Assembly: GCA_025451195.1 (NCBI GenBank)
Contig: JANWKV010000017.1
Span: forward strand, 2,471 to 66,470
From: Candidatus Microgenomates bacterium
GTDB taxonomy: Bacteria; Patescibacteriota; Microgenomatia; Levybacterales; UBA12049
DNA length: 64,000 bases
Direction of reading: 5' to 3'
Part shown: piece by piece, positions 23,637 through 64,000 of the stretch
How the letters are laid out: the number at the start of each line of letters is the position of its first letter
How positions within the stretch are numbered: position 1 is the first letter of the stretch
Translations under genes and position numbers: made by a program
Notes under the pieces: generated by a model
Told to the model about the DNA's origin: nothing
What the model saw: only the letters and a program-made list of their open reading frames with translations
Databases searched by the model: none

Positions 23637-23638
23637 CT

Positions 23639-36259: not shown

Positions 36260-36260
36260 T

Positions 36261-37151
36261 TTATTGTGAAGATAAAACAGAGAATATGTATGCCGAAGGA
36301 ACACTGTCCCAAGTTTCAAAATATGTTACCTGGCGCTGGGCTGATCCTGCCTGGCCTTGGGAAACTATAAGTTGTCCCTCTCCGGTATTAGGCAAAACCG
36401 GAGAACTGGCGGCAATTGATATTCCAACTTTTGAATTGGCAAACAGTGGAATTATTCTTGCAAATAAAATATTATTTATAGTAAACGAATTTGAAGAGAG
36501 AAAATTTACCCCTGAACCGTTAAAGTTTGTGGCTCCGGCAGCATTTGGCAAAGGGAAGTTGGTACTTCTGCCGCTTGAGCAGCCGTTTTCAACCGGATAT
36601 CTGGCTATTTTTAAATCCGAAGCAGTTCTACTTGTACCTGTAATTACAACCAATTCTACAGCGGAAAAATTACAATATTGCGTTGCCGGAGGAGTAGCTC
36701 CTGTATAATCACCCCAATAAACCGTAAAAGTACCGCTCCAATTGGACGTATAAAGCTTTGTCGGATCCGGATCAAATTTTGTAAACCAGATATCCGTCCC
36801 TTCGTCTTTTGATATAGGATCTCCGTTATTTAATAATGCTATTCTGGTTCCCTGTCCAACATATGTTCTGCTAATTGATGTTATTGATGATCCGTTGTTA
36901 AATTGTTGACCAATTGAAGGATTTTGATTTGTGGCTTGTAAGTATTGTTCTATCCCTGCCTCTGCCGCAGAAAATGCTTTTTGGGAGTTAGCTTCTTCGG
37001 AACCCATTTTTAGATTAGTTATTGTCCGGGACGCTATAGATAACCCAACTGTTAAAGCAATAACCATAATAAGAACAACAATAAGAAAAGCTTGCCCCAG
37101 CTGGCGAGGCGTTGAGGATAAGTTTTTTTGTGAGCCCTGAATCACATGCAT
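36261..37151 (-). CDS. Membrane-anchored Ser/Thr/Gly/Asn-rich surface protein encoded in the pilus locus (not a canonical prepilin)
   Basis: N-terminal hydrophobic anchor RQLGQAFLIVVLIMVIALTVG without the G-F-T-L-x-E prepilin motif. The rest is low-complexity and looks extracellular. Confidence 0.4.
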   Translation of the reverse strand: MHVIQGSQKNLSSTPRQLGQAFLIVVLIMVIALTVGLSIASRTITNLKMGSEEANSQKAFSAAEAGIEQYLQATNQNPSIGQQFNNGSSITSISRTYVGQGTRIALLNNGDPISKDEGTDIWFTKFDPDPTKLYTSNWSGTFTVYWGDYTGATPPATQYCNFSAVELVVITGTSRTASDLKIARYPVENGCSSGRSTNFPLPNAAGATNFNGSGVNFLSSNSFTINNILFARIIPLFANSKVGISIAASSPVLPNTGEGQLIVSQGQAGSAQRQVTYFETWDSVPSAYIFSVLSSQ

Positions 37152-37263
37152 GAATTTAGCGTAACAAGCTGGTCAATGTCTGTCAACTATATTCCTTAAC
37201 TTAAAATTTATAAACAGGATATGTTTTGTGCCATATGCCATAAAACCAAATATGACAGGTATC

Positions 37264-37899
37264 TTACCTGTTTTTATTTCTTAAAGTAATTCCTGTAAAG
37301 AAAGGTATCGGATTTGCCGAAGCGGAATTTTCAACAACTCCTGTTGGTTTTGCAGATGTTAGTGAAAAAGATATTCCAATAACAGGGTAGTCTGTTGCCG
37401 ATGATTGACTGCAGGTAAATCCGCATGAAGTTGTCATAACAGAATTAGTATCTAAATAAGGCTGCGGAGTTGGATTAGCGCTTGTGTAGTAAGTAATTGA
37501 ATTGTTTACGCTATCACAGGTGAATGTAGTTTGATTTCCGTCCGGATCTGTAACGGTTATTGCGGTTATTGTGGGAACCGGCGTGGGATAAACAGCAGTG
37601 ACGCATGTTGGAGTCGGAGAAACTATTAAAGGGGAAGAAACATCTGTTGCATCTCTTATCGTTTTTGACATCTGCGTTATTACGTAATTCCCATTCTGTT
37701 TTACATTTGTTAATGTATCTGTTTTTGTTGAAGTTCGCAGTGATGTTACAAGAATTACTGTTCCAATACCGCTTACTAAGGAAAAAACAACTATTACTGC
37801 TAAAAGCTCTATCAAAGTAAACCCGTTTGTGTTTTTTGTTACTTTGTAAATTATAGAAAAAAATTTAATTTTTAATTTGGCAAAAATCATGCTATTCAT
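37264..37899 (-). CDS. Type IV pilin-like protein (prepilin N-terminus …TNGFTLIELLAVIVV); Thr/Pro-rich
   Basis: G|FTLIE class III signal. The start is placed at the ATG 2 nt after the upstream gene's stop. Confidence 0.7.
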   Translation of the reverse strand: MNSMIFAKLKIKFFSIIYKVTKNTNGFTLIELLAVIVVFSLVSGIGTVILVTSLRTSTKTDTLTNVKQNGNYVITQMSKTIRDATDVSSPLIVSPTPTCVTAVYPTPVPTITAITVTDPDGNQTTFTCDSVNNSITYYTSANPTPQPYLDTNSVMTTSCGFTCSQSSATDYPVIGISFSLTSAKPTGVVENSASANPIPFFTGITLRNKNR

Positions 37900-37901
37900 A
37901 A

Positions 37902-38477
37902 CTAACTTGGCGCCGGAACAACATCTCCGCTTGAAAAGCATGAAGAAAGTTTTACGCTGTGGCAATAAGGATTTACCCTGCTCGTACATTTATTGTCTGC
38001 CCAAGAAACAGATGAAATCACATATGTTCCGTATTGACACTGATTTGGGCTGCCTCCTCCCGGGGTATCGTTATAAATTGTTATCTCACGTACAAACGTA
38101 TTGCTAACATTTGGATTACAAACCCCGCTATTTGGTCCGCATGTAATATAATCTGATGCTGCCGGATTGGTCTCAATTTGTCTGCACGTATCTGCAAGGC
38201 AATAATGCTGACTAAGCGTTACGAATGTGCCGTAATTTGTGTTTCTCATAAACCTCATTATTTCCATGCCTTGTTGGGCATATTGAGTTGCCAGGTTTTG
38301 ATTTTTAACAAACTCGGCATTATTAAGCGATGTTATAGCGGCAATTGTTATAGATGTTACAATTACCGTTATAACAGACAGCGCGACAAGTACCTCAATT
38401 AATGTTTGCCCCGTACACGAGCACCAACACCTGGGGCCACGGGCGATGACGGACAGGATTTTTTGAAATATCTTCAT
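37902..38477 (-). CDS. Type IV minor pilin-like protein (…CTGQTLIEVLVAL…)
   Basis: GQTLIE prepilin-like motif followed by a hydrophobic helix. The start is chosen directly after the upstream stop. Confidence 0.55.
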   Translation of the reverse strand: MKIFQKILSVIARGPRCWCSCTGQTLIEVLVALSVITVIVTSITIAAITSLNNAEFVKNQNLATQYAQQGMEIMRFMRNTNYGTFVTLSQHYCLADTCRQIETNPAASDYITCGPNSGVCNPNVSNTFVREITIYNDTPGGGSPNQCQYGTYVISSVSWADNKCTSRVNPYCHSVKLSSCFSSGDVVPAPS

Positions 38478-39010
38478 TTTATTAGACCTGTATTGAAAAC
38501 CGTAATTGGCGTTGGTGTTATGCTGTATCCTCCAACTGAGATATTCCATGAAGATGAATTGGGAGAATCACAGGGGGACGAAACGCTACTCGTTACTGAA
38601 TTAAATAAAAGCGTATGGGAGTCTGTTGTAACTGTAACATTTGGAGGGAGCGGCTTGGCTGTACCACTTACCAAGCTGTCTGTACTGTCGCACCTGATGT
38701 CAAGTTGATAACCCGAACTAATATTGCATGCAGCACATGCATCGTTTTTGGGACAAAAAACTACTAAATAACCGTTGAATTTTTGCCCTGAAGAGCAAAG
38801 CGATACTTGGGAATTTGCTCTTGACCTTGCATCAAAGATTGTTGTTTTTATCTCCTGGGTAACAGTATTTATCGTCTGTTTTCTGCTATAAGTAACAAAT
38901 GCTGCCAAACCCGCGGTCGACAAAATAGCAATTACGGAAAAAACTACAATTAATTCAATTAGCGTAAAACCCTTTAGGAAGTGCCATTTTCTTTTGAGTA
39001 TAAATTTCAT
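38474..39010 (-). CDS. Type IV pilin-like protein (MKFILKRKWHFLKGFTLIELIVV…)
   Basis: KGFTLIE motif. ATGA start/stop overlap with the upstream pilin gene. C-terminal Cys residues. Confidence 0.7.
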   Translation of the reverse strand: MKFILKRKWHFLKGFTLIELIVVFSVIAILSTAGLAAFVTYSRKQTINTVTQEIKTTIFDARSRANSQVSLCSSGQKFNGYLVVFCPKNDACAACNISSGYQLDIRCDSTDSLVSGTAKPLPPNVTVTTDSHTLLFNSVTSSVSSPCDSPNSSSWNISVGGYSITPTPITVFNTGLIK

Positions 39011-39504
39011 GGATTGTATACGTTGTAGTATTTTCCCGACGTACACGTACCGCTTCCTGTAACACCGGTTGGAAGAGAAGAACTTATGTGCGAATCTGTG
39101 TCGCTGCCGTTTTCAACACAAAAACTCAGGGAATATTGACCGCTTCCGGTATAATTATATAAGTAAACGCCTCCATTCCATGTTCCGCTGCCGAACGGAT
39201 CGCATGGAATTTTTTGCATGTATGTAGATGCACCGCTACTTAAGGAACCTCCGCAGGTTGATAGAGTGCTACTTACCGGATAATCCGATTGGTCTGCTCG
39301 GTATTGCTCAAGAGCAGCCTGGATCTCGCTAATGTCTGATTTTCTCCTGCCATCTCTTGCCCTTTCACGAACACCGATAAAACTGGTTAACAAAAGCGAT
39401 GCAAGTACGCCAATTATTGCCATAACAATTAGAAGTTCTATTAGCGTAAATCCTTTAGTTATTCTCAGGGTAATTTTCTTTCCAGGTATTCCGTTAATTA
39501 CCAT
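39007..39504 (-). CDS. Type IV pilin (…ITKGFTLIELLIVMAIIGVLA…), PilA-like
   Basis: Canonical prepilin signal and N-terminal helix. 165 aa. Confidence 0.75.
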   Translation of the reverse strand: MVINGIPGKKITLRITKGFTLIELLIVMAIIGVLASLLLTSFIGVRERARDGRRKSDISEIQAALEQYRADQSDYPVSSTLSTCGGSLSSGASTYMQKIPCDPFGSGTWNGGVYLYNYTGSGQYSLSFCVENGSDTDSHISSSLPTGVTGSGTCTSGKYYNVYNP

Positions 39505-39535
39505 ATATTTATGATAGGCCGCCAGTAAAAATTAA

Positions 39536-40051
39536 TCAAGGCGATGTGTTTGGACTTGATACTCCAAAATTACATATACCACCGCAAGCCATAGGTGGAA
39601 TATTGTTTGTTTGTAAACTGGCACAAATACCAGGACCCGCAGACAGGCATCTTTCCGGATCAGAACTGTCTTCCAGAGAAGCATACAAGTAATATGTTTG
39701 ATTATTGTTTGTAGAGAAATAAATGTATTTCCTATTTTTATCAGGATCTTTAGGAAGGAAATTCATATATGGAATCCAGGGATTACCCCAGAGAATTGGA
39801 ATATTTGTTTTAAAATCAACAATTTGATAATTTTTTGAAGAGGGGTATCTTGCTCTGTCTCTAAAATATTCTTCAAGCATTTTTTGCAGCTGTTTTATGT
39901 CGTTTTTTCTTATTGCGTCGTTCATTTTTTCTATACGTTGGGTCGGATTAATGATTGTTAAAACAAATCCTCCTATAACAACGATAACGCCTAAAAAAAT
40001 AATCACTTGAATAAGTGTAAGTCCTTTCTCTAAAAAACCATTTTTTTTCAT
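39536..40051 (-). CDS. Pilin-like protein with a non-canonical N-terminus (MKKNGFLEKG|LTLIQ; Gln rather than Glu at position +5)
   Basis: Short basic leader, Gly, then a hydrophobic helix. The conserved Glu5 is replaced by Gln and the +1 residue is Leu. Confidence 0.5.
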   Translation of the reverse strand: MKKNGFLEKGLTLIQVIIFLGVIVVIGGFVLTIINPTQRIEKMNDAIRKNDIKQLQKMLEEYFRDRARYPSSKNYQIVDFKTNIPILWGNPWIPYMNFLPKDPDKNRKYIYFSTNNNQTYYLYASLEDSSDPERCLSAGPGICASLQTNNIPPMACGGICNFGVSSPNTSP

Positions 40052-40052
40052 A

Positions 40053-40490
40053 TTACGGACATGCATTGCCGGGATTTGAAACTTCACAAACTTTACCTGT
40101 TGCTGATTCATATCTATAAAAGGGGTTTGAAATAAACCTCGCGGATTTTAAAGGAGAGGTGATAACAATACTGACGCAGGAAACTCCACCTGTGCAACCT
40201 GCCGGATTTGCGGTAAAAGTGTAGGAGTAGCCATCGGGAGGACTTGGTTGTTTACTGATTTCATTTTCACCAAACAAATCCGCCAAACTCGCGGGATAAA
40301 AACCGCTATGGTTTGTCGCGAAGGATTCGCTGGCTCTGCCATATAAACTAATATCCTGTTCTGCAACAGTATCTGATGCATATTTAATTTGATCAAAAGA
40401 AACTGCAACAATTACAACAGATAAAATTGCCGCAATTCCCATAACTACAAGAAGTTCCAAAAGCGTAAAGCCCCTTAAATTGGCATCCAT
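40053..40490 (-). CDS. Type IV pilin (MDANLRG|FTLLELLVVMGIAAIL); paralogue of the 41365-41862 pilin
   Basis: Canonical short leader. The C-terminal half shares ESxAT…GFYPAS…CTGGV.C…YESATGK.C with the other pilin. Confidence 0.75.
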   Translation of the reverse strand: MDANLRGFTLLELLVVMGIAAILSVVIVAVSFDQIKYASDTVAEQDISLYGRASESFATNHSGFYPASLADLFGENEISKQPSPPDGYSYTFTANPAGCTGGVSCVSIVITSPLKSARFISNPFYRYESATGKVCEVSNPGNACP

Positions 40491-40540
40491 ATTTCTAGTA
40501 TGGATATGCAAAATTTTGCTGTCAAGCCTGGACTGGATCT

Positions 40541-41314
40541 CTACCTGAAAAATATAAAAAAAATATTAAGAAGAAAATTGCCCCACAAAAGAGTGCTTAT
40601 GGTTCCCAAGGCCAAAAACGGTCCGAATGCAATTGTGCTTTTAAGCTTTTTCCTGCGAAGAAAAATTAAAAGTATTGAAAACAAAGCGCCTGACACAAAA
40701 GCTATGTAAATAGAAATAACTATGCCGGGAAACCCAAGTAGAATTCCCATAACTAAAACAAACTTTACATCTCCCATTCCCATTCCTTTCCCCTTTGTAA
40801 AAACGGCAAGCAAAAGAAAAAACAAAAATGCGCCGACTCCCGAAATAATAAACACGGGAATTTTTCCAAAATTTGTAAACAAATTAAAAAGAAAGCCGCA
40901 AATTCCAAGCGACAAAAGAATTATGTCCGGAATTATTCCATCAAAAATGTCAATGAAAAATATAATAATAAGTAACGACATAATGAAAAGACAATAAATA
41001 AGCCAAATTGGATTTAGGCCGTGTTGGTAAAAATATATACTTCCTAAACTAAAAAGTATGCCTGTTGTAATTTCTATTATTGGATATCTGTAACCTATAA
41101 ATTTTTTGCAATAACGACACTTACCATAAAGAAATATAAATGAAAAAACAGGAATTAGATCTATCCAGGATAAAGTGTGTTTGCAAAATTCACAATGGGA
41201 CCGCCCTTTAAAAAAGGTTTCGCCACGGGGAAGTCTGTCTATAATAACGTTTAGAAAGCTTCCTATAAATAACCCGGAAATAAAAAGGACAATTACGAAT
41301 AGAAGAAAATGCAC
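40541..41314 (-). CDS. pilD: Prepilin peptidase / N-methyltransferase (A24 family)
   Basis: N-terminal CxxC…CxxC zinc-binding region (CEFCKH…CRYCKK); multi-transmembrane protein with conserved Asp residues. Confidence 0.8.
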   Translation of the reverse strand: MHFLLFVIVLFISGLFIGSFLNVIIDRLPRGETFFKGRSHCEFCKHTLSWIDLIPVFSFIFLYGKCRYCKKFIGYRYPIIEITTGILFSLGSIYFYQHGLNPIWLIYCLFIMSLLIIIFFIDIFDGIIPDIILLSLGICGFLFNLFTNFGKIPVFIISGVGAFLFFLLLAVFTKGKGMGMGDVKFVLVMGILLGFPGIVISIYIAFVSGALFSILLIFLRRKKLKSTIAFGPFLALGTISTLLWGNFLLNIFFIFFR

Positions 41315-41364
41315 ATAAAAATCGTACGTTAAATATAAAACAAAATCAACCTAGGAGATGGTAA

Positions 41365-41862
41365 TTAACATTGTGCGCCAACAACCGGAGTTATCGCGGG
41401 TCCTAAGAAACAAGTCTTACCTGTTGCAGATTCATATTTCATCAGCGGCGTTGCAGAGTATTTTGCGCTTTTCATTACTGACCAGATAGCAATTCCTGTA
41501 CAATCAACACCGCCTGTACAGGATCCTGGATTTGTAATCCAGTTATAACCGTATCCTGATGCCGGAGTAGGGGCAAATTTTAATTCATTGGCAGTTACTA
41601 AATCTGCTGCAGATGCAGGATAAAAGCCGTTTCTAGCTGTTGCATAAGATTCCGCCGCCCTTGCCTGCACGCCTACATCAGATAATACTCTTGAGTCATT
41701 GGCTGCGTTAATTTTTTCTGTTGGGTTGATTGCCGCAACAAGACCGATAGATAAAACTCCTAAAATTGCCATAACTATTAAAAGCTCAATAAGAGTAAAC
41801 CCCTTAGTTGCGCGCAGAAAAAGCCTCTTTTGATATGTTATCTTAAATCTGGGCAGAAACAT
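41365..41862 (-). CDS. Type IV pilin, candidate major pilin (…LRATKGFTLIELLIVMAILGVLS…)
   Basis: Canonical prepilin motif. C-terminal disulfide-pair cysteines. Sits next to the pilC/pilT/pilB genes. Confidence 0.75.
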   Translation of the reverse strand: MFLPRFKITYQKRLFLRATKGFTLIELLIVMAILGVLSIGLVAAINPTEKINAANDSRVLSDVGVQARAAESYATARNGFYPASAADLVTANELKFAPTPASGYGYNWITNPGSCTGGVDCTGIAIWSVMKSAKYSATPLMKYESATGKTCFLGPAITPVVGAQC

Positions 41863-41913
41863 ATACTTAACTTAGTATACACACATATTTTACTTTGTTG
41901 TCAAGTGGTAGCA

Positions 41914-43113
41914 TTATTGTATTGACGAGGTAAGATTATAAATAGGCGTAATTACAGAAATAATAAGGAATGCAACTCCTAAGCCCAACATAACCATAAT
42001 AATAGGTTCTATTAAAACCGTAAGATTTTTAACCTTTTCTTCAACTTCTCTTTCAAAGTATTCAGAAATCTTTAGAAGAGATTCGTCTAATTTTCCTGTT
42101 TGTTCACCAATCTTTACCATTTGGATAAAAATTGGCGGAAAGACAGAATAGGTTGACATTCCATCTCCAACGCCTATGCCTTTTTCAACTCTAGCGGCAA
42201 CGTCAAGAATGGCGTTTCTGTAGACTAAATTTCCTGCAACATCGGAGGTTTCATTTAATGATTGGACAACAAGCGATCCTGCTTCGATTAAAAGTCCCAT
42301 TGTACGGGCCACCTCGGAAAGAATAGATAATGTAACAATATTTCCCATTATCGGAATTCGAAGCATAATTTCATCTCTTATTAATCTTCCTGATTCGGTT
42401 GCAACCCAACGGGTGTAAAGAAATATAATAAGTGCAACCATGCCGATTGCGATAGGCCACCAATTTACAAAAAAATGAGATATCGTAATAACAACAACGG
42501 TTGCAAACGGTAATTTAATATTAAGATTCGCGTACAAACCGGTCAGCTGCGGAATAACAAAAATCATCATAACCATAGTTACAGCAATCATTAAAACAAC
42601 TATAACTGCTGGATAAATAAGAGCTGCTTTTACAGCACCTTTTAGCTTTTGTCCCTTTTCCAGATTATCGGCAAGTCTGTTCAAAATTTTATCCAGAAAT
42701 CCTGACGATTCTCCGGCTTTAATAAGAGAAATATAAACAGGAGAAAATACATTGGGAAATTTACTGATTCCGAATGAAAGTGGTTTTCCCTCCTGAACAT
42801 CTGCAATTACACTTATTACAATCTCTTTCATTGAGGGATTTTGCATTTGATCTTTTAGGATCGACAAAGCCTGCATAAGAGTAAGTCCCGATGCAAGAAT
42901 TGAAGAAAGTTGCCTTGTAAATAAAACCAAATCCGTATTCCCTTGTCTTTTTAAAAAAGAGAGAAGAGATATTTCTTCTTGTTTCGGTTTTATGAAAATC
43001 GGAAGAAGGTCCTTACCCCGAATGTAATATGCGGCCTCACTAATATCTTTTGCTTCGATTATTCCTTGTTGAATTTTTCCGTCTTTACTGACAGCCTTAT
43101 AATTAAGCTTCAT
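41914..43113 (-). CDS. pilC: Type IV pilus inner-membrane platform protein PilC (GspF family)
   Basis: Two T2SSF repeats, ~400 aa, multiple transmembrane segments. Confidence 0.85.
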   Translation of the reverse strand: MKLNYKAVSKDGKIQQGIIEAKDISEAAYYIRGKDLLPIFIKPKQEEISLLSFLKRQGNTDLVLFTRQLSSILASGLTLMQALSILKDQMQNPSMKEIVISVIADVQEGKPLSFGISKFPNVFSPVYISLIKAGESSGFLDKILNRLADNLEKGQKLKGAVKAALIYPAVIVVLMIAVTMVMMIFVIPQLTGLYANLNIKLPFATVVVITISHFFVNWWPIAIGMVALIIFLYTRWVATESGRLIRDEIMLRIPIMGNIVTLSILSEVARTMGLLIEAGSLVVQSLNETSDVAGNLVYRNAILDVAARVEKGIGVGDGMSTYSVFPPIFIQMVKIGEQTGKLDESLLKISEYFEREVEEKVKNLTVLIEPIIMVMLGLGVAFLIISVITPIYNLTSSIQ

Positions 43114-43119
43114 AGGAAA

Positions 43120-44187
43120 TCACCCTAACATGCGCAGTAATTCTTCCGGGTGGAGAGAATAATTTTTTGCAACTTCTAAAGAGACTGCACCCGACAATAC
43201 AAGTTGGGCCAGATATGCTTCCAAGGTTATCATTCCAACTTCTTGAGACGTTTGAATAATAGAATCTATAAGATGGGTTTTCCCTTCACGGATATTGCTG
43301 GATATTGCGGCGTTTGCGATAAGTACTTCAACTGCCGGAATTCTTCCTCCTGCCAACTGGGGGAGAAGTCTTTGGGAAATAATTCCTCTTAAAACAAACG
43401 AAAGCTGGATACGAATTTGTGACTGCTGATGCTCAGGAAAAGAATCTATAATACGGTCAACGCTTTGAGACGCGGAATTAGTATGAAGGGTTGAAAAAAC
43501 CAAATGGCCCGTTTCCGCAATCGTCATAGCCGCCGCCATTGTGTCCGGGTCACGCATTTCTCCAATAAGTAAAACGTCCGGGTCTTCACGAAGGGCAGAT
43601 CTTAATGCCATGTTCCAGGAATGGGTATCGGATTTCATCTCGCGTTGAGAAATAATACTTTGCCCGTTAGGATAAATATATTCGATAGGATCTTCTATTG
43701 TTAGAATATGCGATGACCGTCTCATATTTATTTCATTCACCATTGACGCAAGCGTTGTTGATTTTCCGTGTCCTGTTGGACCTGTCACCAGCACTAAACC
43801 CTGCCGCAACTCTGCAAAAGAATGACAAATTTTTGGCAAATGCAACTCTTCTATTGAGGCAATAGATCTTGGAAGATATCTGAATGCTGCACACAAAACT
43901 CCACGCTGATAATATGCGTTTACACGAAATCTTCCAAGGTCTCCTGTTATACCTCCTCCGTAAGGAATTGAAAAATCAAGTTCTTTGTTGGTAATAATCA
44001 ACTCTTTTTGTTCCGGACTTACAACGGCAAAAATCATTTGCTCGGCTGTTTCTTTGGAAACGGCAGAATAATTTGAAAGAAGCGAAAGCGAACCGTTTAT
44101 TCGAATAGCAGGGGGAATACCAGGTAGAATATGCAAATCAGAAGCATTATTTTTAACTGTTAAATCAAGTAATTCTTTTATATCCAT
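43120..44187 (-). CDS. pilT: Type IV pilus retraction ATPase PilT. The start is taken at MDIKELLDL.
   Basis: ASDLHI…, Walker A GPTGHGKSTT, Asp box and His box. ~355 aa with no N-terminal extension. Confidence 0.8.
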   Translation of the reverse strand: MDIKELLDLTVKNNASDLHILPGIPPAIRINGSLSLLSNYSAVSKETAEQMIFAVVSPEQKELIITNKELDFSIPYGGGITGDLGRFRVNAYYQRGVLCAAFRYLPRSIASIEELHLPKICHSFAELRQGLVLVTGPTGHGKSTTLASMVNEINMRRSSHILTIEDPIEYIYPNGQSIISQREMKSDTHSWNMALRSALREDPDVLLIGEMRDPDTMAAAMTIAETGHLVFSTLHTNSASQSVDRIIDSFPEHQQSQIRIQLSFVLRGIISQRLLPQLAGGRIPAVEVLIANAAISSNIREGKTHLIDSIIQTSQEVGMITLEAYLAQLVLSGAVSLEVAKNYSLHPEELLRMLG

Positions 44188-44252
44188 AAAACTCCCTTCG
44201 GTCGTAATAAACAAATATACAAATAATCCAATTGAAAAATTTGATTATCGTA

Positions 44253-46076
44253 TTATTCTTGAGCGACCCTTAGCACTTCTTCAATCGTTGTATTACCTTT
44301 TAAAACTTTTAAAAATCCGTCCTGTTTCATTGTAACCATACCATCCTGGACTGCTTGTCTTTCAATTTCATCAATGGAAGAATGTTTCAGTAAAAGTTGG
44401 GACATTTTTTCTGTTACAGGCAGCACTTCAAAAATTCCAATTCTTCCCAGATATCCCGAATCTCCACATTCCGCACATCCTTTACCTTTATAAAATTTTA
44501 TCTGGGTTGAATCTGCCGGGAAGAGAACCCCTAATGTTGCTTTTATCTCCTGAATCAGTTGGGCAGGAGGTTCATAGGCAACTTTACAAGTGCTACAAAT
44601 CTGACGGACAATGCGCTGACCTACAATTGCGTTTAGCGTTGATGCAATTAAAAACGCTTCGGCACCCAAATCCAGAAGACGGGGGAGTGCTCCGGCTGCG
44701 TTGGACGTATGAAGTGTTGAAAAAACCAAATGGCCTGTAAGTGCTGCTTGAATTGCAAGGTCTGTTGTTTCTCTGTCTCTAATTTCTCCCACCAAAATTA
44801 TGTTTGGGTCCTGTCGTAAAAAAGAGCGGAGTCCGAATGCGAATGTAAGACCAACTCCCGGGTTAATTTGCACTTGGTTAATTCCGGGGATTTCATACTC
44901 GACAGGATCCTCCAAAGACATTATATTTACTCTTGTTGTGTTAAGTTTTGTCAAAATAGAATAAAGCGTTGTTGTTTTACCCGATCCGGTTGGTCCACAA
45001 ACAAGAATTATTCCGTGCGGCCTAAGTATTGCGGCATCTAAATTTCTAAGGGAAATACCATTTAAACCTAATTCGTTCAATGTTGGTATTCCTCCCGATT
45101 TACGCAAAAGTCTCATCACAACTTTTTCCCCATGAGCTGTTGGTAAAACTGACACACGAAGATCCACTTCTTTATCTTCAACTTTAAAATTAAATCTTCC
45201 ATCCTGAGGAGTTCGGTGCTCATCGATTTTCATTTCCGATAAAATTTTTATGCGCGAAATAACTGCCTCCTGCACTGTTTTGGGAAGCGTTAATCTGTCG
45301 TATAAAATGCCATCGATCCTATACCTTACTCTTATTCTGTCTTCCATCGGCTCTATGTGAACATCCGATGCCCTGGACAAAACCGCGTAATCCAAAATGG
45401 TTGATACAATTTTTGCAATCGGTGCTTCCTTAATAATTTCTCCAATTTTTTTGCTGTCAACAGTTTTGCTTTTACTTGTTAATTCTTCTGTTTCCTTAAC
45501 TGCTTTGCCTACCTCGCCAACTAATTCCTGTCTATACTGTGAGCTAATTGCCTTTTCAACGTCTGAGGGCGTAGCGGCGTATGCTTTAATTGTCAATCCG
45601 GTTTTTTCCCTTACAAATTGTATTGCCTCCAAATCAACAGGATTTGCCATAGCAATTGACAGTGTTTTTGATGTATCGTCATATGAAAACGGAATAAGGG
45701 CAAATCTTTCAACAACAGCACGCGGAATAAAACTCAAAGCTTCTGGAGAAAAAGCAGTTGTTGCCAGCGAAACAAACGGAACACTAATTGCTTGGGCTTT
45801 GGCCCTTGAGATTTTTTCCTCATTAAACAAATGCATTTCGTTAAGAACTGTTTCTGCTGATTTTCCGCCCGTTGCCATCTTAACTTTAACGTCTTCATAC
45901 TGCTGTCTTGTAAGTAAATTTTGGCTTAGGAGTATGTCCGCAATTGTGTTTCTGTCATCTGATATTTGTATTGCAGAAGAACTATCCTGAACTTGAGCCA
46001 CCTGCGTATTTTGTGCAGGGTCTTGTGGCGCAGCTTGAAAATTTTGATCAGGTTGTGGTAATTGTGATTGTGTCAT
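44253..46076 (-). CDS. pilB: Type IV pilus assembly ATPase PilB (GspE family) with a T2SSE_N domain and a C-terminal tetracysteine motif. The start is taken at MTQSQL.
   Basis: Walker A GPTGSGKTTT; CSTC…CAEC zinc motif; N-terminal MshEN-like domain. Confidence 0.85.
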   Translation of the reverse strand: MTQSQLPQPDQNFQAAPQDPAQNTQVAQVQDSSSAIQISDDRNTIADILLSQNLLTRQQYEDVKVKMATGGKSAETVLNEMHLFNEEKISRAKAQAISVPFVSLATTAFSPEALSFIPRAVVERFALIPFSYDDTSKTLSIAMANPVDLEAIQFVREKTGLTIKAYAATPSDVEKAISSQYRQELVGEVGKAVKETEELTSKSKTVDSKKIGEIIKEAPIAKIVSTILDYAVLSRASDVHIEPMEDRIRVRYRIDGILYDRLTLPKTVQEAVISRIKILSEMKIDEHRTPQDGRFNFKVEDKEVDLRVSVLPTAHGEKVVMRLLRKSGGIPTLNELGLNGISLRNLDAAILRPHGIILVCGPTGSGKTTTLYSILTKLNTTRVNIMSLEDPVEYEIPGINQVQINPGVGLTFAFGLRSFLRQDPNIILVGEIRDRETTDLAIQAALTGHLVFSTLHTSNAAGALPRLLDLGAEAFLIASTLNAIVGQRIVRQICSTCKVAYEPPAQLIQEIKATLGVLFPADSTQIKFYKGKGCAECGDSGYLGRIGIFEVLPVTEKMSQLLLKHSSIDEIERQAVQDGMVTMKQDGFLKVLKGNTTIEEVLRVAQE

Positions 46077-46125
46077 GGGCAGATATTTTAATCGTACACA
46101 AAGAAGAGCTATAATACAAGCTGTT

Positions 46126-46779
46126 ATGCAAACATTTTTGATTATTTCCAAAAATAAAGACCGGGAAAAGATTTACATAAATGACATGCGCAAAAAACAA
46201 AATATTGATCCTCTCGATTGCGTTTTTTTATCAACAGAGAAAACATTTGGCATTGAAAATGTACGCGATCTGCAGAAAACCATCTTTTTAAAACCCTTAA
46301 AAAGCAAGGAAAAAATTGTTGTTGTTGAAGATTTTCAAACCGCAACGATTGAGGCTCAAAACGCAATGCTAAAAATCCTTGAAGAACCGCCAAATAACAC
46401 AATTATTATTTTGACTTCTCAATCTATAAGATTTGTTATTCCGACCGTTCTTTCCCGGACAACATTAGTGCATCTTGAGGACGAAGAAAAAAATGATAGA
46501 GACAGTAAATCAACAGAAGAGCTCTTGAAAATTATAACGATGACGGATGAAGAAAAATTATACCTAGCACAGGAAAAATCAAAAGATAAGGAACTTGCTA
46601 TTAACTGGGTAGTAAAGCTTATCTACGGATCAAGAAATTTACTCCTGGAAAACTCATCCAGGCAAAACATTGAGATGTCCAAAAATTTGATTGAATCATA
46701 CAGGCTAATAACAGAAACAAACGTAAATACGCGGTTTTTGCTGGAAAATACACTTTTAAAACTGCGTCAGATTGGTTAA
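46126..46779 (+). CDS. holB: DNA polymerase III delta-prime-like clamp-loader subunit, N-terminally truncated (no Walker A region)
   Basis: AQNAMLKILEEPP and the SRC-like …LSRTT… motif. Only ~218 aa. Transcribed divergently from pilB. Confidence 0.6.
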   Translation: MQTFLIISKNKDREKIYINDMRKKQNIDPLDCVFLSTEKTFGIENVRDLQKTIFLKPLKSKEKIVVVEDFQTATIEAQNAMLKILEEPPNNTIIILTSQSIRFVIPTVLSRTTLVHLEDEEKNDRDSKSTEELLKIITMTDEEKLYLAQEKSKDKELAINWVVKLIYGSRNLLLENSSRQNIEMSKNLIESYRLITETNVNTRFLLENTLLKLRQIG

Positions 46780-57939: not shown

Positions 57940-57968
57940 TTGACAAGATATAAAACCCGTAGTATATT
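57940..57968 (+). promoter_or_regulatory. Sigma-70-type promoter: TTGACA, 17 nt, TATATT
   Basis: Consensus -35 and a good -10, about 430 nt upstream of argG. Confidence 0.5.
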
Positions 57969-57974
57969 GGTATT

Positions 57975-58402
57975 TAACAATTTAAGTTACGGCGTTGACG
58001 GAGAAAGACAACACGAAAGTGAAGTCCTCGAGCTCCTGAGCCAGTTCCAGAAAAAATTCGAAAGAATAGTAAGGAACAGAATAAGCCAATTTGACTCTCT
58101 GTCAAGGCATTCACAGAGGGATTTTTAATCGAAAGATTACCAGATTGGAAAGAAGCGTGGCACCACGGAACAATCCGTCGCTTTCTGCGGTTCTCTCAGT
58201 AAGGAGAGGCCCAGAAAGGGGCGGATTTTTGGTATTCCGACAGTTTTTTAAAAATAGAATACCAACCCGCCGACCAATCGCCCTGTGAGGCGTGCATGAA
58301 TAATACTGAAAAGCCGAACGGAAAGATTAGGCGGGTGTGAGTAAAAATGAAAGAAGATCCTGAAATCCCTTACAGGGTAAAAATTCAGGATGACAAAATT
58401 AT
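57975..58402 (+). ncRNA. Long GC-rich structured 5' leader, a candidate cis-regulatory RNA, ending in a hairpin that sequesters the argG Shine-Dalgarno (SD) sequence
   Basis: Local GC is ~50% against the ~33% background. Several nested stems (e.g. GGTATTC…GAATACC at 58241-58267). ATCCTGAA (58357-58364) pairs with TTCAGGAT (58384-58391), covering the AGGA ribosome-binding site. There is no convincing protein-coding frame. Confidence 0.45.
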
Positions 58403-59599
58403 ATGAAAAAAAATATAAACAAAAAAGTGATTTTAGCGTTTTCAGGGGGACTGGACACTTCATTCTGTGTTCCTTATTTAATGGAACAAGGATATGAAGT
58501 TGTAACTGTGACAGTTAACACTGGTGGATTTACTAAAAAGGAACTATTAAATATTTCTGAAAAATCAAAAAAACTTGGAGCTGTAAAACATTATGAAGTA
58601 AATGCAAAAAAAGAAATGTTTGAAAAAATAGCTTCATACATCATAAAGTTCCACGCTTTATATCAAAGCTCATATCCAAATATGTGTGCTGATAGATACA
58701 TTATTGCGGAGAAGGTTGTTAATATTGCAAAAAAAGAAAACACAAAATTTGTTGCACACGGATCAAGTGCAATGGGGAATGATCAGGTAAGGTTTGATTT
58801 ATCTTTTATGTTTCTTGCGCCAAACTTTACAATCCTTACCCCTATTAAGGAGATTGGTGGAAATAGAAAAAAAGAAGAACAATATTTAAAAGAAAAAAGC
58901 TTGCCATTTGAAATTAAGCATGCAAAATATTCCATTAACAAAAACATCTTGGGTGCCACATATTCCGGATTGGAAATTGATCAGCTTAAACAAGCAGATA
59001 AAAATATATTTACCTTGACTAAATTAATTTCTCAAAAACCCCAAAAACATATACTTTCATTTTTAAAAGGAATTCCAACTCATCTAAATGGCAAAAAAAT
59101 GTCAGGGGAAGAAATTCTTTCAAAGATGAATATAATTGCAGGAAGTTTTGGATTTGGACAAGAAGACTATACAGGTGACTGCATAATTGGAATAAAAGGA
59201 CACATTGCATTTGAAGCACCAGGAATCTTAACCCTTATAAAAGCACACAATGCATTACAGCAAGTAATACTGACAAAGCAACAACAAAATATTGGTGAAT
59301 ATATTAGTCACCAATTTGCCGAACTTTTATACAACGGTAAGTTTTTTGATTCAGTGTTAAAAGATTTACAAGCATTTATTGATTCTCAACAAAAGAGTGT
59401 TAATGGAAATGTAACGCTGATATTTGATTCCCATCAAGTTAAGGTTTCAGAAATTTCTTCGCCTAACTCTCTTATTAACCCTAAGATTGCAACATACGCT
59501 CAACAAGCTAGTTGGACAGCTCAAGACGCAAAAGGATTTATTACTTTATTTGGACTTCAGGAAAAAATATCTGCGCAAAAAGGAGAATTATATGAATAA
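58403..59599 (+). CDS. argG: Argininosuccinate synthase
   Basis: PP-loop ILAFSGGLDTS; ~400 aa. Confidence 0.85.
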   Translation: MKKNINKKVILAFSGGLDTSFCVPYLMEQGYEVVTVTVNTGGFTKKELLNISEKSKKLGAVKHYEVNAKKEMFEKIASYIIKFHALYQSSYPNMCADRYIIAEKVVNIAKKENTKFVAHGSSAMGNDQVRFDLSFMFLAPNFTILTPIKEIGGNRKKEEQYLKEKSLPFEIKHAKYSINKNILGATYSGLEIDQLKQADKNIFTLTKLISQKPQKHILSFLKGIPTHLNGKKMSGEEILSKMNIIAGSFGFGQEDYTGDCIIGIKGHIAFEAPGILTLIKAHNALQQVILTKQQQNIGEYISHQFAELLYNGKFFDSVLKDLQAFIDSQQKSVNGNVTLIFDSHQVKVSEISSPNSLINPKIATYAQQASWTAQDAKGFITLFGLQEKISAQKGELYE

Positions 59600-60143
59600 C
59601 GTAATTTTGACATCAAATTCAAATTCTACTTTTGTTCCAAATAATTCTTTACAAAAGGACATTCAAATCATTCTAGGGAAAAATGTTGCTGAAAAACTAA
59701 GTGAATCAGAGATAGATTTTCTTTCAAAAATGTATAGTCAAAAACTTGCAAAACACAAAGAAACAATGCTGCAGCTAACTAAATTTCAATTAAAAAAGAT
59801 TATTAATAGTGGCCTGATGATAATAGCTATTGATAAAAATACAAAAGAAATTATTGCCGGAGGAAGAATTATGTTTCATAAAAATCATACATATGAATTT
59901 TGCAGTTGGGTAGCTTTTAAAAAGGGTTTTGGAAAAATAATTATAAATTCTGCCAAAAAATTGGCACTTTCATTAGATAAAGCAGCAAGCCTTTACAGCG
60001 TAATTCAAAAAGACAATATATACGCTCAAATCGCATTGGAAAAAACAGGTGCAAAAAAATTGAATTCAAAACCCAAAGATCTTGTACTTATTTTGGAAAA
60101 ATCAGATGGGAAAAAAGCGGATGCTGTGTATTTTGAACTTTAA
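59592..60143 (+). CDS. GNAT-family acetyltransferase (183 aa), possibly a short-form N-acetylglutamate synthase
   Basis: Motif-A-like …WVAFKKGFGKIIINSAKKLA…. ATG overlaps the argG stop. Sits between argG and argH. Confidence 0.45.
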   Translation: MNNVILTSNSNSTFVPNNSLQKDIQIILGKNVAEKLSESEIDFLSKMYSQKLAKHKETMLQLTKFQLKKIINSGLMIIAIDKNTKEIIAGGRIMFHKNHTYEFCSWVAFKKGFGKIIINSAKKLALSLDKAASLYSVIQKDNIYAQIALEKTGAKKLNSKPKDLVLILEKSDGKKADAVYFEL

Positions 60144-60147
60144 ATTT

Positions 60148-61641
60148 ATGAAAAATAAGATATACGACGGAATTTATACAAAAGGACCAAATCAACAAAC
60201 AGATTCATTCATTGTAGATTTTGCACAACAACAAGCAGACAGTGAAATAGTACCTTTTTATTTGTGGGAAACGTTGGCGCACAATTATATGCTAATGAAA
60301 CAAAAAATTGTACCAGAAAAAGCTGCAAAGAAAATATTAAAAGAGCTAATTTATCATTCTGAAAATATTGAAAAGAATGGATTTATTGTTGACCCGTTAA
60401 TTGGGGACGTGCATGAAAATTTTGAAAATTTATTAATAAAATCAATTGGTGATATTGCGGGATGGATGCATGTTGCCAGATCAAGAAATGATCAAATTAC
60501 AACAGACCAAAAGTTAATTACCAAAAAATTACTTTTTGATCTTTATGGTCAAATTTTTAATCTTGCAAAAGTTTTAGAAAAAAAGGTTTACAAATACAAA
60601 AATGTTGTTATGCCGGGATTTACCCATTTTAGGGTAGCGATGCCTTCTTCATTTGGTTTCTGGTGGCAATCATATTTACAGCAAATTATTGAGTGTGAAG
60701 AAATTTTAAAGTCAGTATTTTTAACAACAGATATTTCTTCCTTAGGAGCCGGAGCATCGTATGGTGTGAATTGGCCGATTGATCCTAAAATGACCGCAAA
60801 TGACTTAGGCTTTGATAAACCTATGATAAATGCTCTTTTCGCTTTAAATTCAAGAGGAATACATGAATCATACGTTTTAGGACCACTTTGCAGTCTATCT
60901 GTAGTTTTATCGAGAATGATGGAAGATATTATTTACTTTAGCTCAGCTGAAATAAACTTTATTTTTGTTGATGAATCATTTACAACAGGAAGTTCAATAA
61001 TGCCTCAAAAAATGAATGCTGTTGTGGCAGAAAGAACAAGAAGTAAAGCTGCGAAAATATTAGGAAATTATATTACAACTTTAATAAGTTTGAAGGGAAC
61101 ACCTTCCGGTTACAACATGGACTCTGCAGAAACAAAAACTTCAATAATTGAGAGTTTAAAAATATTTATTGACACAATTAATATTGTTGCTCAAATGTTA
61201 GAAACAATCTCTCCCAATACAGCAGCTATGGGAAATGCTGTTGCACCGTCTTTGGCTACAAAGCTTGCGGATTGCCTCTCTCAAGATTATCAAATTCCAT
61301 TTAGAAAAACCCACCAGATTGTTGGAAAAGTTCTCCAACAAATTGATAAAGACATCTCAAAAATATCTTCTGAAAAATTGGAAAAAATAATTATGGAAAT
61401 TGTTGGCAAAAAAATTACGCTTCCAAAAGGATATTTGCAAAATATATTAGATTCAGAAAATGCTTTATCACAGTACTACTACAAAGGGTCTCCAAATCCA
61501 ACATATGTAGAAAAGGTAAATGCGGAGCTTTCGATACAAAACCAACAATTTTTAAACTGGTTTAAAAAAGAGCAAGAAAAATTTTATGATGCTAAGAAAA
61601 ATTTAGTAAGCAAAGTTAAAAAATATTTGAAGGAAAAATAA
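60148..61641 (+). CDS. argH: Argininosuccinate lyase
   Basis: Fumarate-lyase signature GSSIMPQKMN. The start is taken at ATG 60148, after the GNAT stop. Confidence 0.85.
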   Translation: MKNKIYDGIYTKGPNQQTDSFIVDFAQQQADSEIVPFYLWETLAHNYMLMKQKIVPEKAAKKILKELIYHSENIEKNGFIVDPLIGDVHENFENLLIKSIGDIAGWMHVARSRNDQITTDQKLITKKLLFDLYGQIFNLAKVLEKKVYKYKNVVMPGFTHFRVAMPSSFGFWWQSYLQQIIECEEILKSVFLTTDISSLGAGASYGVNWPIDPKMTANDLGFDKPMINALFALNSRGIHESYVLGPLCSLSVVLSRMMEDIIYFSSAEINFIFVDESFTTGSSIMPQKMNAVVAERTRSKAAKILGNYITTLISLKGTPSGYNMDSAETKTSIIESLKIFIDTINIVAQMLETISPNTAAMGNAVAPSLATKLADCLSQDYQIPFRKTHQIVGKVLQQIDKDISKISSEKLEKIIMEIVGKKITLPKGYLQNILDSENALSQYYYKGSPNPTYVEKVNAELSIQNQQFLNWFKKEQEKFYDAKKNLVSKVKKYLKEK

Positions 61642-61642
61642 T

Positions 61643-62737
61643 ATGAATTTATTAAAAAAACTAATACAAATACATTCTGTTTCAGGGAGTGAAAAAGAAA
61701 TTCAACAATTTATATTTGATTATTTCTTTAAAAAAAATTTGCAACCTTTTTATGTTGGGGAAAACGTTGTTGTAAAAATTGATGGAAATGACAATAAAAA
61801 ATCTCTAATTTTTAATGCGCATGTTGACACAATTTCTGCTGGGAATACAAAGCTATGGAAATATCCACCTTTTGCAGGAGTAAAGACAAATGGAAAAATA
61901 TATGGAGTGGGAGCAAGTGATAGCAAAGCAGGAATTGCAACCCTAATGATGCTTGGAAATGAATTTAAGAAAAATAAACCAAAGTGTGATATCTGGTTAA
62001 CATTTGTTGTAAAAGAGGAAACAGACGGATCGGGAACAAAAAACTTCATTAATCTCTTTACCAACAACTATAAGAAACAATATAAGGAAATTGCCGGGAT
62101 ATTACTTGAGCCGACAAATCTTTCCAAAATTGAAATTGCTCATAAAGGAAATGTTTTCCTAAAGGTTATTACATATGGTGATAGTGGACATGGATCTGCT
62201 CCTGAGTTGGTTAAAGAAAACGCAATCAATATTATGCAAAAAGTAGCAAAAAAACTTTTAAAACTAGAGAAAGAATGGAAAAAAGAATATGAAGATTCAC
62301 TTTTAGGAAGCCCCTCAATTGCTTTATTTACTTCATTACACGCAGGAGATCCCTTAAGCCCTAATAAAATTCCAGAAACTTGTGTCGCAACATTTGATAT
62401 TCGCACAACACCAAAAATGCATAAAAATGCTTTAGAAATGGTGAAGAAAGAAATAAAGGAAAAAAATATTGAAGTATTCACAAAATACAAACCTTTAGAA
62501 TGCGGATTTACATCTCCCAACGCAAGAATTGTAACAATCACAAAATCAAGCGCTGATTCGGAGATTTGTGCTTCTTCAAGCTCAAACGACCTTTTATTTT
62601 TTACAAAAGCAGAAATTCCCGCTGTAGTATTTGGACCGGGGAATACAAATGAAAAACACAAAGTAAATGAGTTTTGTGAAATCAAAAACTTGATAAAAGC
62701 AAAAGAAATTTATAAAGAAATTATTCAAAAATTTTAA
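61643..62737 (+). CDS. argE: M20-family metallopeptidase (acetylornithine deacetylase / succinyl-diaminopimelate desuccinylase, ArgE/DapE-like)
   Basis: …FNAHVDTISAG… and …GVGASDSKAG… metal-ligand motifs. Confidence 0.7.
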   Translation: MNLLKKLIQIHSVSGSEKEIQQFIFDYFFKKNLQPFYVGENVVVKIDGNDNKKSLIFNAHVDTISAGNTKLWKYPPFAGVKTNGKIYGVGASDSKAGIATLMMLGNEFKKNKPKCDIWLTFVVKEETDGSGTKNFINLFTNNYKKQYKEIAGILLEPTNLSKIEIAHKGNVFLKVITYGDSGHGSAPELVKENAINIMQKVAKKLLKLEKEWKKEYEDSLLGSPSIALFTSLHAGDPLSPNKIPETCVATFDIRTTPKMHKNALEMVKKEIKEKNIEVFTKYKPLECGFTSPNARIVTITKSSADSEICASSSSNDLLFFTKAEIPAVVFGPGNTNEKHKVNEFCEIKNLIKAKEIYKEIIQKF

Positions 62738-62738
62738 T

Positions 62739-64000
62739 ATGAAAAATGAATCAAAAAAACTAATCGTTATCGGGTGTGGACCAAAAGGAACTGCCCTTGG
62801 CGTTAAAAATAAAGTGCTTCAAGACTTAGGTTATAATGTTCCCGATGTTATTATCATTGAAAAAGAAAATGTTGGCGCACACTGGGACGGCAAACATGGA
62901 TTAACACACGGCAGATTACCTCTTGGGTCTGCTCCACAAAAAGATATTGGCTATCCTTACAGATCTTTATTTGATAAAAAGGTTGATAAAGAAATGCAAA
63001 AGTACTCATGGAACGCATACATGATTGAAAAAGATTATTACGTTGATTGGATTGATAAAGGAAGACTTGCCCCAACCCATATTGAATGGGCAAAATATTT
63101 TCAGTGGGCAGTTAAAAAGGCAGGGGTAAAAGTTTATAAAGGTGAGGTAGTAAAAATTAATAAAGAAGAAGATAAATGGAAAGTCAAATTTATTAATGGC
63201 AAGGCCAATGAAGTAATGGGTGACGGACTTGTTATCACTGGCCCAGGCGAACCAAAACAACTGCCTATTTATGGGATTGTTGAGAAAAAAAATTCAATTC
63301 CCACTGTCCTTGATGGTAAAAATTTTTGGCAATTTGTAAAACATTTTAGAAAATTAAAAAATGTAAAGATTGCGTTACTTGGCGGGGGAGAATCTGCAGC
63401 TTCAATTATCGTTGGGCTCCTAGATCATGTTGATATCGCAACAGTTAAAGTTGATTTAATAAATAATGGCCATGCAACTGTTTTTACAAGAAATGAAAAC
63501 TCACTTGATAATATGCATTTTTCAGACCCAACCCATTGGAAACTTCTAACAGAAGAAGAAAGAATACGCTTTATTAAAGCGGCAAGAGCAGGAAATTTTT
63601 CCGTTTATGCAAAAAATATTATTGACGAACATTACCTTAATTCATGGGTTTCATACAAGGCGGTTAATATGAAATATGTAAAACCGCTAAAAATTGTAGC
63701 CGGCTCTGACAAACCCGGTCTTGTTTATTCATTAGCAGATGGAAGCATTAAAAAATCCGAATATGATTTTATTATTTCCGGAATTGGATTTAACGCATTA
63801 AGTTTTACGAAATTTATGAAAGATACAAATGAACTTACAAATAAACACGACCTTGAGAAAAAAATTCAAGATGATATGAGTGTTAAGGACATAAAACCAA
63901 CACTTCATTTGCCAATGCTGTCTGCCTTAAATCAGGGGATTGGGTTTTCAGAATTAACGTGTCTTGGACTTTTAGCTGACAGAATTTTACAACCGTATGT
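62739..64000 (+). CDS. Flavin-dependent lysine/ornithine N-monooxygenase-family protein (SidA/IucD/PvdA-like), 3'-truncated by the window end
   Basis: Hand-translated; it is absent from the ORF track because it has no stop in the window. FAD motif VIGCGPKG, …HIEWAKYFQWAV…, NADPH motif LLGGGESAAS. Confidence 0.6.
   Translation, partial: MKNESKKLIVIGCGPKGTALGVKNKVLQDLGYNVPDVIIIEKENVGAHWDGKHGLTHGRLPLGSAPQKDIGYPYRSLFDKKVDKEMQKYSWNAYMIEKDYYVDWIDKGRLAPTHIEWAKYFQWAVKKAGVKVYKGEVVKINKEEDKWKVKFINGKANEVMGDGLVITGPGEPKQLPIYGIVEKKNSIPTVLDGKNFWQFVKHFRKLKNVKIALLGGGESAASIIVGLLDHVDIATVKVDLINNGHATVFTRNENSLDNMHFSDPTHWKLLTEEERIRFIKAARAGNFSVYAKNIIDEHYLNSWVSYKAVNMKYVKPLKIVAGSDKPGLVYSLADGSIKKSEYDFIISGIGFNALSFTKFMKDTNELTNKHDLEKKIQDDMSVKDIKPTLHLPMLSALNQGIGFSELTCLGLLADRILQPY

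Follow-up and report, generated by a model that had tools for sequence, protein, structure and literature searches.

The 64,000-nt window analysed here, a stretch of contig JANWKV010000017.1 from a Candidatus Microgenomates bacterium, ends in five genes of the same orientation: argG, a 183-aa open reading frame (ORF) with a predicted GNAT fold, argH, a gene for an M20 metallohydrolase, and a gene for a flavin-dependent N-hydroxylating monooxygenase (referred to below as the flavoenzyme). We consider it probable that these represent an arg operon which is induced by arginine starvation and which carries an N-hydroxylase gene as its fifth member. Apart from its new GNAT family and its unusual leader, the arg part is ordinary arginine biosynthesis. 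An earlier note on this DNA had described the gene order, including the overlap between argG and the GNAT gene, and the ORF coordinates bear this out (Table 1). It made no mention of the leader, a T-box upstream of argG which had been overlooked.

The distances between consecutive genes (−8, 4, 1, and 1 nt) indicate that the five genes form one operon. At the gene junctions, a consensus scan revealed no terminator-like site; its two matches on the forward strand are both located inside coding sequence and their number is not above that obtained with shuffled sequences. The promoter and the leader are found between the malic enzyme gene and argG. The flavoenzyme gene is a true member of the arg transcription unit and does not belong to a separate downstream operon, a possibility that the earlier note had considered. 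It is co-regulated with the arg genes.

The leader could be aligned end to end with the T-box model RF00230 (43 bits, E = 7.8e-7). As in other T-box riboswitches, there is a K-turn, a specifier loop, a Stem II with an AGUA S-turn, and an antiterminator with a UGGN bulge which competes with a terminator. According to the predicted fold, the short Stem I is composed of the K-turn (UGA/GA), a GGAG/CUCC helix, the specifier loop, and a hairpin capped by GAAA. The antiterminator core, also obtained by folding, is AAGCG[UGGCACC]ACGGA...UCCGUCGCUU. The terminator (−43.5 kcal/mol, z −4.5) and the antiterminator are mutually exclusive. The usual targets of T-boxes are genes for aminoacyl-tRNA synthetases, biosynthesis, and transport, whereas the operon from the window ends in a gene for a flavin N-hydroxylase. 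We found no report of T-box control of an N-hydroxylase in the literature.

In the fold, the sequence CUCGAG fits the standard layout of codon, purine, lower helix, and K-turn, so that the specifier would be CGA (Arg), followed by G. With good confidence, based mainly on this register and on the downstream genes, we take the specifier to be an Arg codon. The UGGC of the bulge implies a G73 discriminator on the cognate tRNA. Under what we take to be the usual bacterial discriminator pattern, G73 is compatible with Arg or Ser and speaks against tRNA-Leu, which has A73. The window carries no gene for a tRNA-Arg, the only tRNA gene being that for tRNA-Val. A spacer of about 165 nt which separates the terminator from argG is itself structured (minimum free energy −39.7 kcal/mol, z −3.25, with none of 200 shuffled sequences folding as well). 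It matches no Rfam family (E ≤ 0.1) and may be either another regulatory element or the edge of the arg cassette.

The same leader was encountered in contig L087, which has a length of 2.5 kb and ends 69 nt past the gene for a flavoenzyme (protein P0002) with 82% identity to that from the window. The gene for malic enzyme (81% identical to its counterpart in the window) is followed by the same promoter, leader, and terminator, by an ORF of 73 codons, and by the flavoenzyme gene. There are no arg genes in between, and the 73-aa ORF takes the place of the whole arg cassette. This unrelated ORF has no family match. The spacer is also missing from L087, the alignment of the two sequences stopping at the terminator. 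Leader and flavoenzyme are syntenic in the window and in L087, and the arg cassette between them is variable. The cassette may have been inserted in the lineage of the window, or lost or relocated in that of L087. In the window, the arg genes have the lowest GC content at third codon positions (0.20–0.23), several genes of native operons being nearly as low, and no repeats were found to flank the cassette. A more distant contig, L084, again has the order argG-GNAT-argH.

The leaders from the window and from L087 show 88.7% sequence identity, compared to 57% at the third codon positions of the flavoenzyme gene. Two stems carry compensatory double changes: CAC/GUG to CAU/AUG in the top hairpin of Stem I, and GUUCC/GGAAC to GCUCC/GGAGC in Stem II. 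This indicates that the leader is under selection in both lineages. The fact that the leader directly precedes the flavoenzyme unit in L087 makes a link of the hydroxylase to arginine or ornithine metabolism plausible.

Table 1. Features of the operon, its leader, and further elements discussed in the text. Positions refer to the window unless a contig is named.
Feature	Position	Strand	Basis or remarks
Sigma-70-type promoter, TTGACA-17 nt-TATATT	57940–57968	+	11/12 matches, top promoter-like site of the region; also conserved in L087
T-box leader	57986–58235	+	Rfam RF00230 match, folding, comparison with L087
Short Stem I of T-box leader	57991–58042	+	Folding
Specifier loop, 3' side, CUCGAG	58027–58032	+	Inferred specifier CGA at 58029–58031
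T-box Stem II		+	Carries AGUA S-turn
Antiterminator	58152–58184	+	7-nt bulge UGGCACC at 58158–58164
Terminator	about 58172–58227	+	Followed by U run
Structured spacer, terminator to argG	58236–58402	+	Folding compared to shuffles
argG, argininosuccinate synthase, 398 aa	58403–59599	+	PF00764, PF20979; first gene of the operon
GNAT-fold acetyltransferase (predicted), unnamed arg-linked family, 183 aa	59592–60143	+	Profile, predicted structure, gene context; ATG overlaps final 8 nt of argG
argH, argininosuccinate lyase, 497 aa	60148–61641	+	PF00206, PF14698; 4 nt after the 183-aa ORF
M20 metallohydrolase, ArgE/DapE type, 364 aa	61643–62737	+	PF01546, PF07687; 1 nt after argH
NbtG/MbtG-clade flavin N-hydroxylating monooxygenase (predicted)	62739–64000	+	1 nt after the M20 gene; runs past the window end, 420 of 424 codons in the window; predicted stop 64011–64013 outside
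73-aa ORF, contig L087	1001–1222		GC 27%; overlaps the flavoenzyme start by 4 nt
GNAT-ArgH fusion P0069, contig L084	270–2291		673 aa
Leader of GNAT-argH-argG-OTC operon, contig L086	7612–8003
Leader of GNAT-argH-argG-OTC operon, contig L089	1628–1985
Acetylcitrulline-type gene cluster, contig L090	394–5978
Threonine operon	1827–6963	+
Weak RF01859 match	18313–18420	+	47.7 bits, gathering score 55
Shikimate/prephenate dehydratase/prephenate dehydrogenase operon	18434–26297		First gene DAHP synthase
EPSP synthase fused with shikimate kinase	20339–22132	+	One protein of 597 aa
Type IV pilus cluster	34019–46151	−

The flavoenzyme gene is cut by the window end, as had been noted before, and protein P0001, which is identical over all 420 residues and has a length of 424 aa, shows that just four codons are missing. 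The earlier assignment to the SidA/IucD/PvdA family of N-hydroxylases is consistent with a match to PF13434 (51.9 bits, gathering score 21.3) and with an intact FAD motif (GCGPKG, residues 12–17) and NADPH motif (GGGESAAS, residues 215–222). Of the glycines, G12, G14, G215, and G217 do not vary among 16 relatives, whereas Gly at residue 17 is confined to P0001 and P0002, the other relatives having Ala or Ser. NbtG (PDB 4D7E), by far the nearest relative of solved structure, is matched over the full length (E = 2.8e-59, residues 7–418 against 3–413), while PvdA (E = 2.2e-6) and DesB (E = 3e-4) are weaker PDB matches. Named MbtG homologues reach E = 1e-62 at about 32–34% identity. Judged by sequence, the protein belongs to the NbtG/MbtG clade of L-lysine N6-hydroxylases, which act in nocobactin and mycobactin synthesis. 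It has about 31–36% identity to the actinobacterial homologues and shares with them the GxGxxG motifs for FAD and NADPH as well as the conserved motifs ITGPG and QG(P/I)GF. NbtG and MbtG are actinobacterial, whereas the host of the window has a low GC content (about 36%) and is probably Patescibacteria-like; among the flavoenzyme relatives with an assignable source organism, the closest are from Saccharibacteria. Also in contrast to NbtG and MbtG, the enzyme has no nonribosomal peptide synthetase (NRPS) or siderophore cluster in the 58 kb upstream, and its gene is the last visible one of a T-box-controlled arg operon. We found no literature report of such N-hydroxylases in Patescibacteria.

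In SidA, residues K107, N293, and N323, like their equivalents in PvdA, bind the carboxylate and amino groups of L-ornithine (PMC8009421). In the HMMER alignment, N258 and N286 of the window protein correspond to N254 and N284 of PvdA, with high posterior support for N286 and moderate support for N258; K68 could be assigned only via a K-D motif common with NbtG. Asn at position 286, as in SidA and PvdA, is shared only with the 82% identical relative P0002, whereas NbtG-like sequences have Val. From this alignment, the substrate is most likely a basic L-amino acid, hydroxylated at the amine of its side chain. Because the gene follows the presumed ornithine-producing step and the protein appears to keep the SidA-type residues K68, N258, and N286, ornithine is possibly the best candidate for the predicted hydroxylase. 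A separate subclade of these uncharacterised NbtG-like enzymes (P0005–P0010) has Glu, Val, and Thr at positions 68, 258, and 286 (alignment A1), compared to Lys, Asn, and Asn in the window protein, which suggests that the subclade acts on another substrate that possibly lacks a carboxylate.

The 183-aa ORF by itself has no match in Pfam, NCBIfam, or the PDB, and a word-indexed search returned only the protein itself. An exhaustive phmmer search of 1.8 billion representatives revealed 29 relatives. An AlphaFold2 model built from an alignment of 25 sequences attained a pLDDT of 90.2 (the single-sequence model, with a pLDDT of 38, was discarded). When this model was used as a Foldseek query, 343 PDB structures matched at E ≤ 1e-3; the best 50 of the 343 are all GNAT-type acetyltransferases, with a TM score of about 0.6. 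The family profile matches the GNAT protein 8gxf (E = 3e-5). A K-K-G-F-G-K loop after the conserved E-F-x-S-W strand corresponds to the pyrophosphate-binding loop between beta4 and alpha3. The alignment also revealed three motifs which the family has of its own (H-x-x-T-M-L-Q, E-F-G-S-W-L-S-F, and A-I-V-E-x-x-N). The GNAT identity proposed in the earlier note, which the single sequence did not reveal, is thus confirmed at the level of family profile and predicted structure.

In six other contigs, relatives of this GNAT adjoin or are fused with arg genes, and none of the six carries a flavoenzyme gene. In L084, the GNAT is fused N-terminally to ArgH (protein P0069) downstream of an argG fragment. 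Contigs L086 and L089 have the order GNAT-argH-argG-OTC, where OTC denotes ornithine carbamoyltransferase, L092 has GNAT-argB-OTC, and L085 has malic enzyme, GNAT, and OTC. In L090, the GNAT gene is divergent from argG, a gene of unknown function (346 aa), and genes for N-acetylornithine carbamoyltransferase (AOTCase) and an M20 hydrolase. Fusion or clustering of a GNAT with argH is a published signature of the short and the ArgH-fused types of N-acetylglutamate synthase (S-NAGS and H-NAGS; Xu et al., 2006, PMC1382215; Shi et al., 2015, PMC4490483). Like these, the window GNAT is a single domain of about 180 aa encoded beside argH, and one of its relatives is fused to ArgH. It differs in having no detectable match to the ArgA or H-NAGS models. 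In P0069 the GNAT is N-terminal and ArgH C-terminal, which is opposite to the domain order of the published ArgH-NAGS fusion of marine gammaproteobacteria. A 56-aa fragment downstream of this fusion has no family match. Because its relatives adjoin or are fused with arg genes and never occur with the flavoenzyme, we consider the window GNAT a candidate NAGS and not an IucB-like hydroxylamine acetylase. It would be a new type, predicted by gene association, and not a member of S-NAGS or H-NAGS. The short NAGS-like role suggested in the earlier note is thus the best reading of the gene context elsewhere.

The operons from L086 and L089 have leaders of their own. These have in common a T-box-like antiterminator, AAGGUGGCACCGCC, in which the UGGC recurs, and a terminator that is very strong (z −7.3). 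Neither Stem I nor Stem II could be recognised in their 5' part, and a different 5' hairpin, which is supported by one compensatory base-pair change, has no usable specifier loop.

ArgG passes two curated equivalog thresholds (TIGR00032, 318.9 with a cutoff of 268.2; NF001770, 337.1 with a cutoff of 334), and ArgH passes that of TIGR00838 (298.6 with a cutoff of 279.5). We considered whether a flavin N-oxygenase might be paired here with an ArgH-like lyase, as in nitrosuccinate-type systems, and rejected this: the lyase passes the argH equivalog threshold and attains 20 bits on the nitrosuccinate lyase model, and the flavoenzyme is NbtG-like. The classification of the M20 enzyme as ArgE/DapE type, given in the earlier note, agrees with its Pfam matches. 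It scores 127.5 on TIGR01892 (cutoff 297.7), and its PDB relatives DapE (7uoi, E = 4e-24) and Escherichia coli ArgE (7rsf, E = 1e-20) are about equally close. Going by its family, the enzyme is probably an N-acetylornithine (or N-acetylcitrulline) deacetylase. In the Xanthomonas-type acetylcitrulline route, AOTCase acts together with an ArgE-like deacetylase. Since the GNAT relative in L090 is encoded beside argG, AOTCase, and an M20 hydrolase, the M20 enzyme of the window could deacetylate acetylcitrulline. In contrast to that route, the window has no carbamoyltransferase gene, contigs L085, L086, and L089 code for a canonical OTC, and the truncated carbamoyltransferase from L092 best matches OTC. 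As to L090 itself, the carbamoyltransferase scores 411.7 on NF003384 (cutoff 288) and the M20 hydrolase has 525 aa, which suggests that this organism uses the acetylcitrulline route.

The operon would work as follows. Transcription would start at the promoter and enter the T-box leader. Uncharged tRNA-Arg would then pair at two sites, the CGA specifier of the short Stem I and the UGGC in the bulge of the antiterminator. This would block formation of the terminator, so that RNA polymerase could read through the five translationally packed genes. The four arg genes would cover steps 1, 5, 7, and 8 of the linear pathway to arginine via acetylated intermediates, with the GNAT acting as NAGS (predicted from context and fusion), the M20 enzyme as deacetylase of N-acetylornithine or N-acetylcitrulline (predicted from its family), and ArgG and ArgH as assigned by their curated family thresholds. 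The genes argB, argC, argD, and argF would be located outside of the window. The product of the fifth gene would be an N-hydroxylase which depends on FAD and NADPH and modifies a basic L-amino acid at its side-chain amine.

Several points weigh against this interpretation. The score of the leader on RF00230 is below the gathering score of 93, and that of the L087 leader is just 25.5 bits. Stem I, with about 52 nt, is devoid of the distal platform, 27 nt being present in place of 74 model positions; a truncated Stem I is also a feature of T-boxes such as actinobacterial ileS leaders. The register of the specifier could be off by one, which would result in UCG (Ser), and the sole tRNA-Arg inspected, tRNA-Arg(UCG) from a distant Saccharibacterium, has A73. 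On TIGR01910, the model for the ArgE/DapE subfamily, the M20 enzyme misses the cutoff by 3 bits (214.3, cutoff 217.6). No similarity could be detected between the GNAT and the known NAGS families, and at E ≤ 0.01 it matches no NCBIfam model, be it TIGR01890, NF008964 (for the bifunctional ArgH-NAGS), or any other; no NAGS chain is among the PDB matches of its family profile, and its NAGS activity is a prediction. The window annotation contains neither argB, argC, argD, and argF nor argJ, as the earlier note had stated, and no OTC gene.

Further points concern the flavoenzyme and also favour the most serious alternative, namely that this gene is an unrelated passenger which joined the operon through genome compaction, the leader in L087 being a leftover from the loss or relocation of arg genes. 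Close relatives of the flavoenzyme are few: P0002, P0003 and P0004 (51% identity each), and two Candidatus Saccharibacteria loci (about 40%); a metagenome scan for close relatives returned one locus, which was already known. Those with 51% and about 40% identity, on Saccharibacteria-like contigs, are solitary and lack neighbouring arg genes. They are found in unrelated neighbourhoods (sortase, a CHAP-domain gene, DHFR, ArsR), with upstream gaps of 39–135 nt, too short for a T-box. To our knowledge, no route to arginine needs an N-hydroxylase. Moreover, L087 ends so close to the flavoenzyme gene that arg genes could be located downstream. On the other hand, the L087 leader is not decaying, as is evident from its conservation relative to silent sites and from the compensatory stem changes. 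The 73-aa ORF and the flavoenzyme gene come first under its control, and the 1-nt gap in the window and the 4-nt overlap in L087 suggest translational coupling. We thus regard an unrelated passenger as rather unlikely.

A bolder version of the starvation-induced operon is that the NbtG-like N-hydroxylase is the conserved target, within this lineage, of an arginine-sensing T-box, in a response to arginine starvation that is so far unknown, and that the GNAT represents an unrecognised class of NAGS. As an example, N-hydroxylation of ornithine, or of a basic amino acid taken from a host, would feed or protect the arginine supply of this small-genome, probably epibiotic bacterium. This is offered tentatively and we consider it unlikely.

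The earlier note had proposed that the M20 enzyme makes ornithine, that the flavoenzyme hydroxylates it at N5, and that the GNAT acetylates the hydroxylamine, resulting in a hydroxamate or an N-hydroxy-arginine-type metabolite and not in arginine. All of these genes are in one operon, which codes for an N-hydroxylase and a GNAT-fold protein as does the aerobactin IucD/IucB module, and the alignment assigns to the flavoenzyme amino-acid-binding residues of the ornithine hydroxylase type. However, argH and the M20 gene separate the GNAT from the hydroxylase gene, and the GNAT family travels with argH, argG, argB, and OTC in the six contigs described above. The GNAT family has weak matches to GNATs of the PF13302 and RimJ/L types and to no further family of acetyltransferases, and it does not match the IucB-type family. 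A tblastn search for ArgG, ArgH, M20, or the GNAT within 10 kb of flavoenzyme relatives was negative for all 80 genome loci. No NRPS, no NRPS-independent siderophore synthetase such as IucA/IucC, and no siderophore transporter or receptor gene was annotated in the window. Finally, a T-box with an Arg specifier follows the logic of amino-acid supply and not that of iron-regulated secondary metabolism. The hydroxamate proposal is not supported and is improbable, since both the M20 enzyme and the GNAT go with the arg genes. Even less credible, to the point that we give it almost no weight, is an enzyme which converts arginine to N-hydroxyarginine in the manner of NO synthase, with ArgG and ArgH recycling citrulline in a bacterial citrulline-NO-type cycle: the sole evidence is co-transcription with argG and argH, together with unproductive binding of arginine by SidA-type enzymes (PMC7347517), while arginine merely uncouples the reaction in SidA and PvdA (PMC7347517), the closest characterised relatives hydroxylate lysine, and induction of an arginine-consuming enzyme while tRNA-Arg is uncharged would be counter-intuitive.

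The remainder of the window codes for ThrRS, IF3, PheRS, TyrRS, PBP, PurH, RecG, RNase III, TrmD, GyrB, GyrA, pyrophosphatase, FolD, and NAD salvage enzymes, in addition to a threonine operon, a complete operon for shikimate, phenylalanine, and tyrosine biosynthesis, and a large type IV pilus cluster. An amino acid kinase and a semialdehyde dehydrogenase at 1.8–4.8 kb were considered as ArgB and ArgC but proved to be aspartate kinase and Asd from the threonine operon. This aspartate kinase has 305 aa, its matches covering the first 250–310 or so of 400–470 model positions, and the Asd is of the archaeal type (asd_EA). In the place of homoserine kinase, the operon codes for a 211-aa P-loop kinase-like protein which matches, and only weakly, an exception model named "homoserine kinase". 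A weak match to the phenylalanine leader-peptide family RF01859, located immediately before the DAHP synthase gene, may represent an attenuator. EPSP synthase is fused with shikimate kinase. The pilus cluster consists of PilM, a PilN-like gene, pilins, prepilin peptidase, PilC, and two PilB/PilT-type ATPases.

If our interpretation holds, a T-box with a very short Stem I controls arginine synthesis in a lineage beyond the classic examples from Firmicutes and Actinobacteria. The unnamed arg-linked GNAT family would provide a candidate that can be tested for the first step of arginine synthesis, the enzyme for which is often missing in poorly known bacteria. A siderophore-type N-hydroxylase under the control of amino-acid starvation would hint at roles of such enzymes beyond iron acquisition in bacteria with small genomes.

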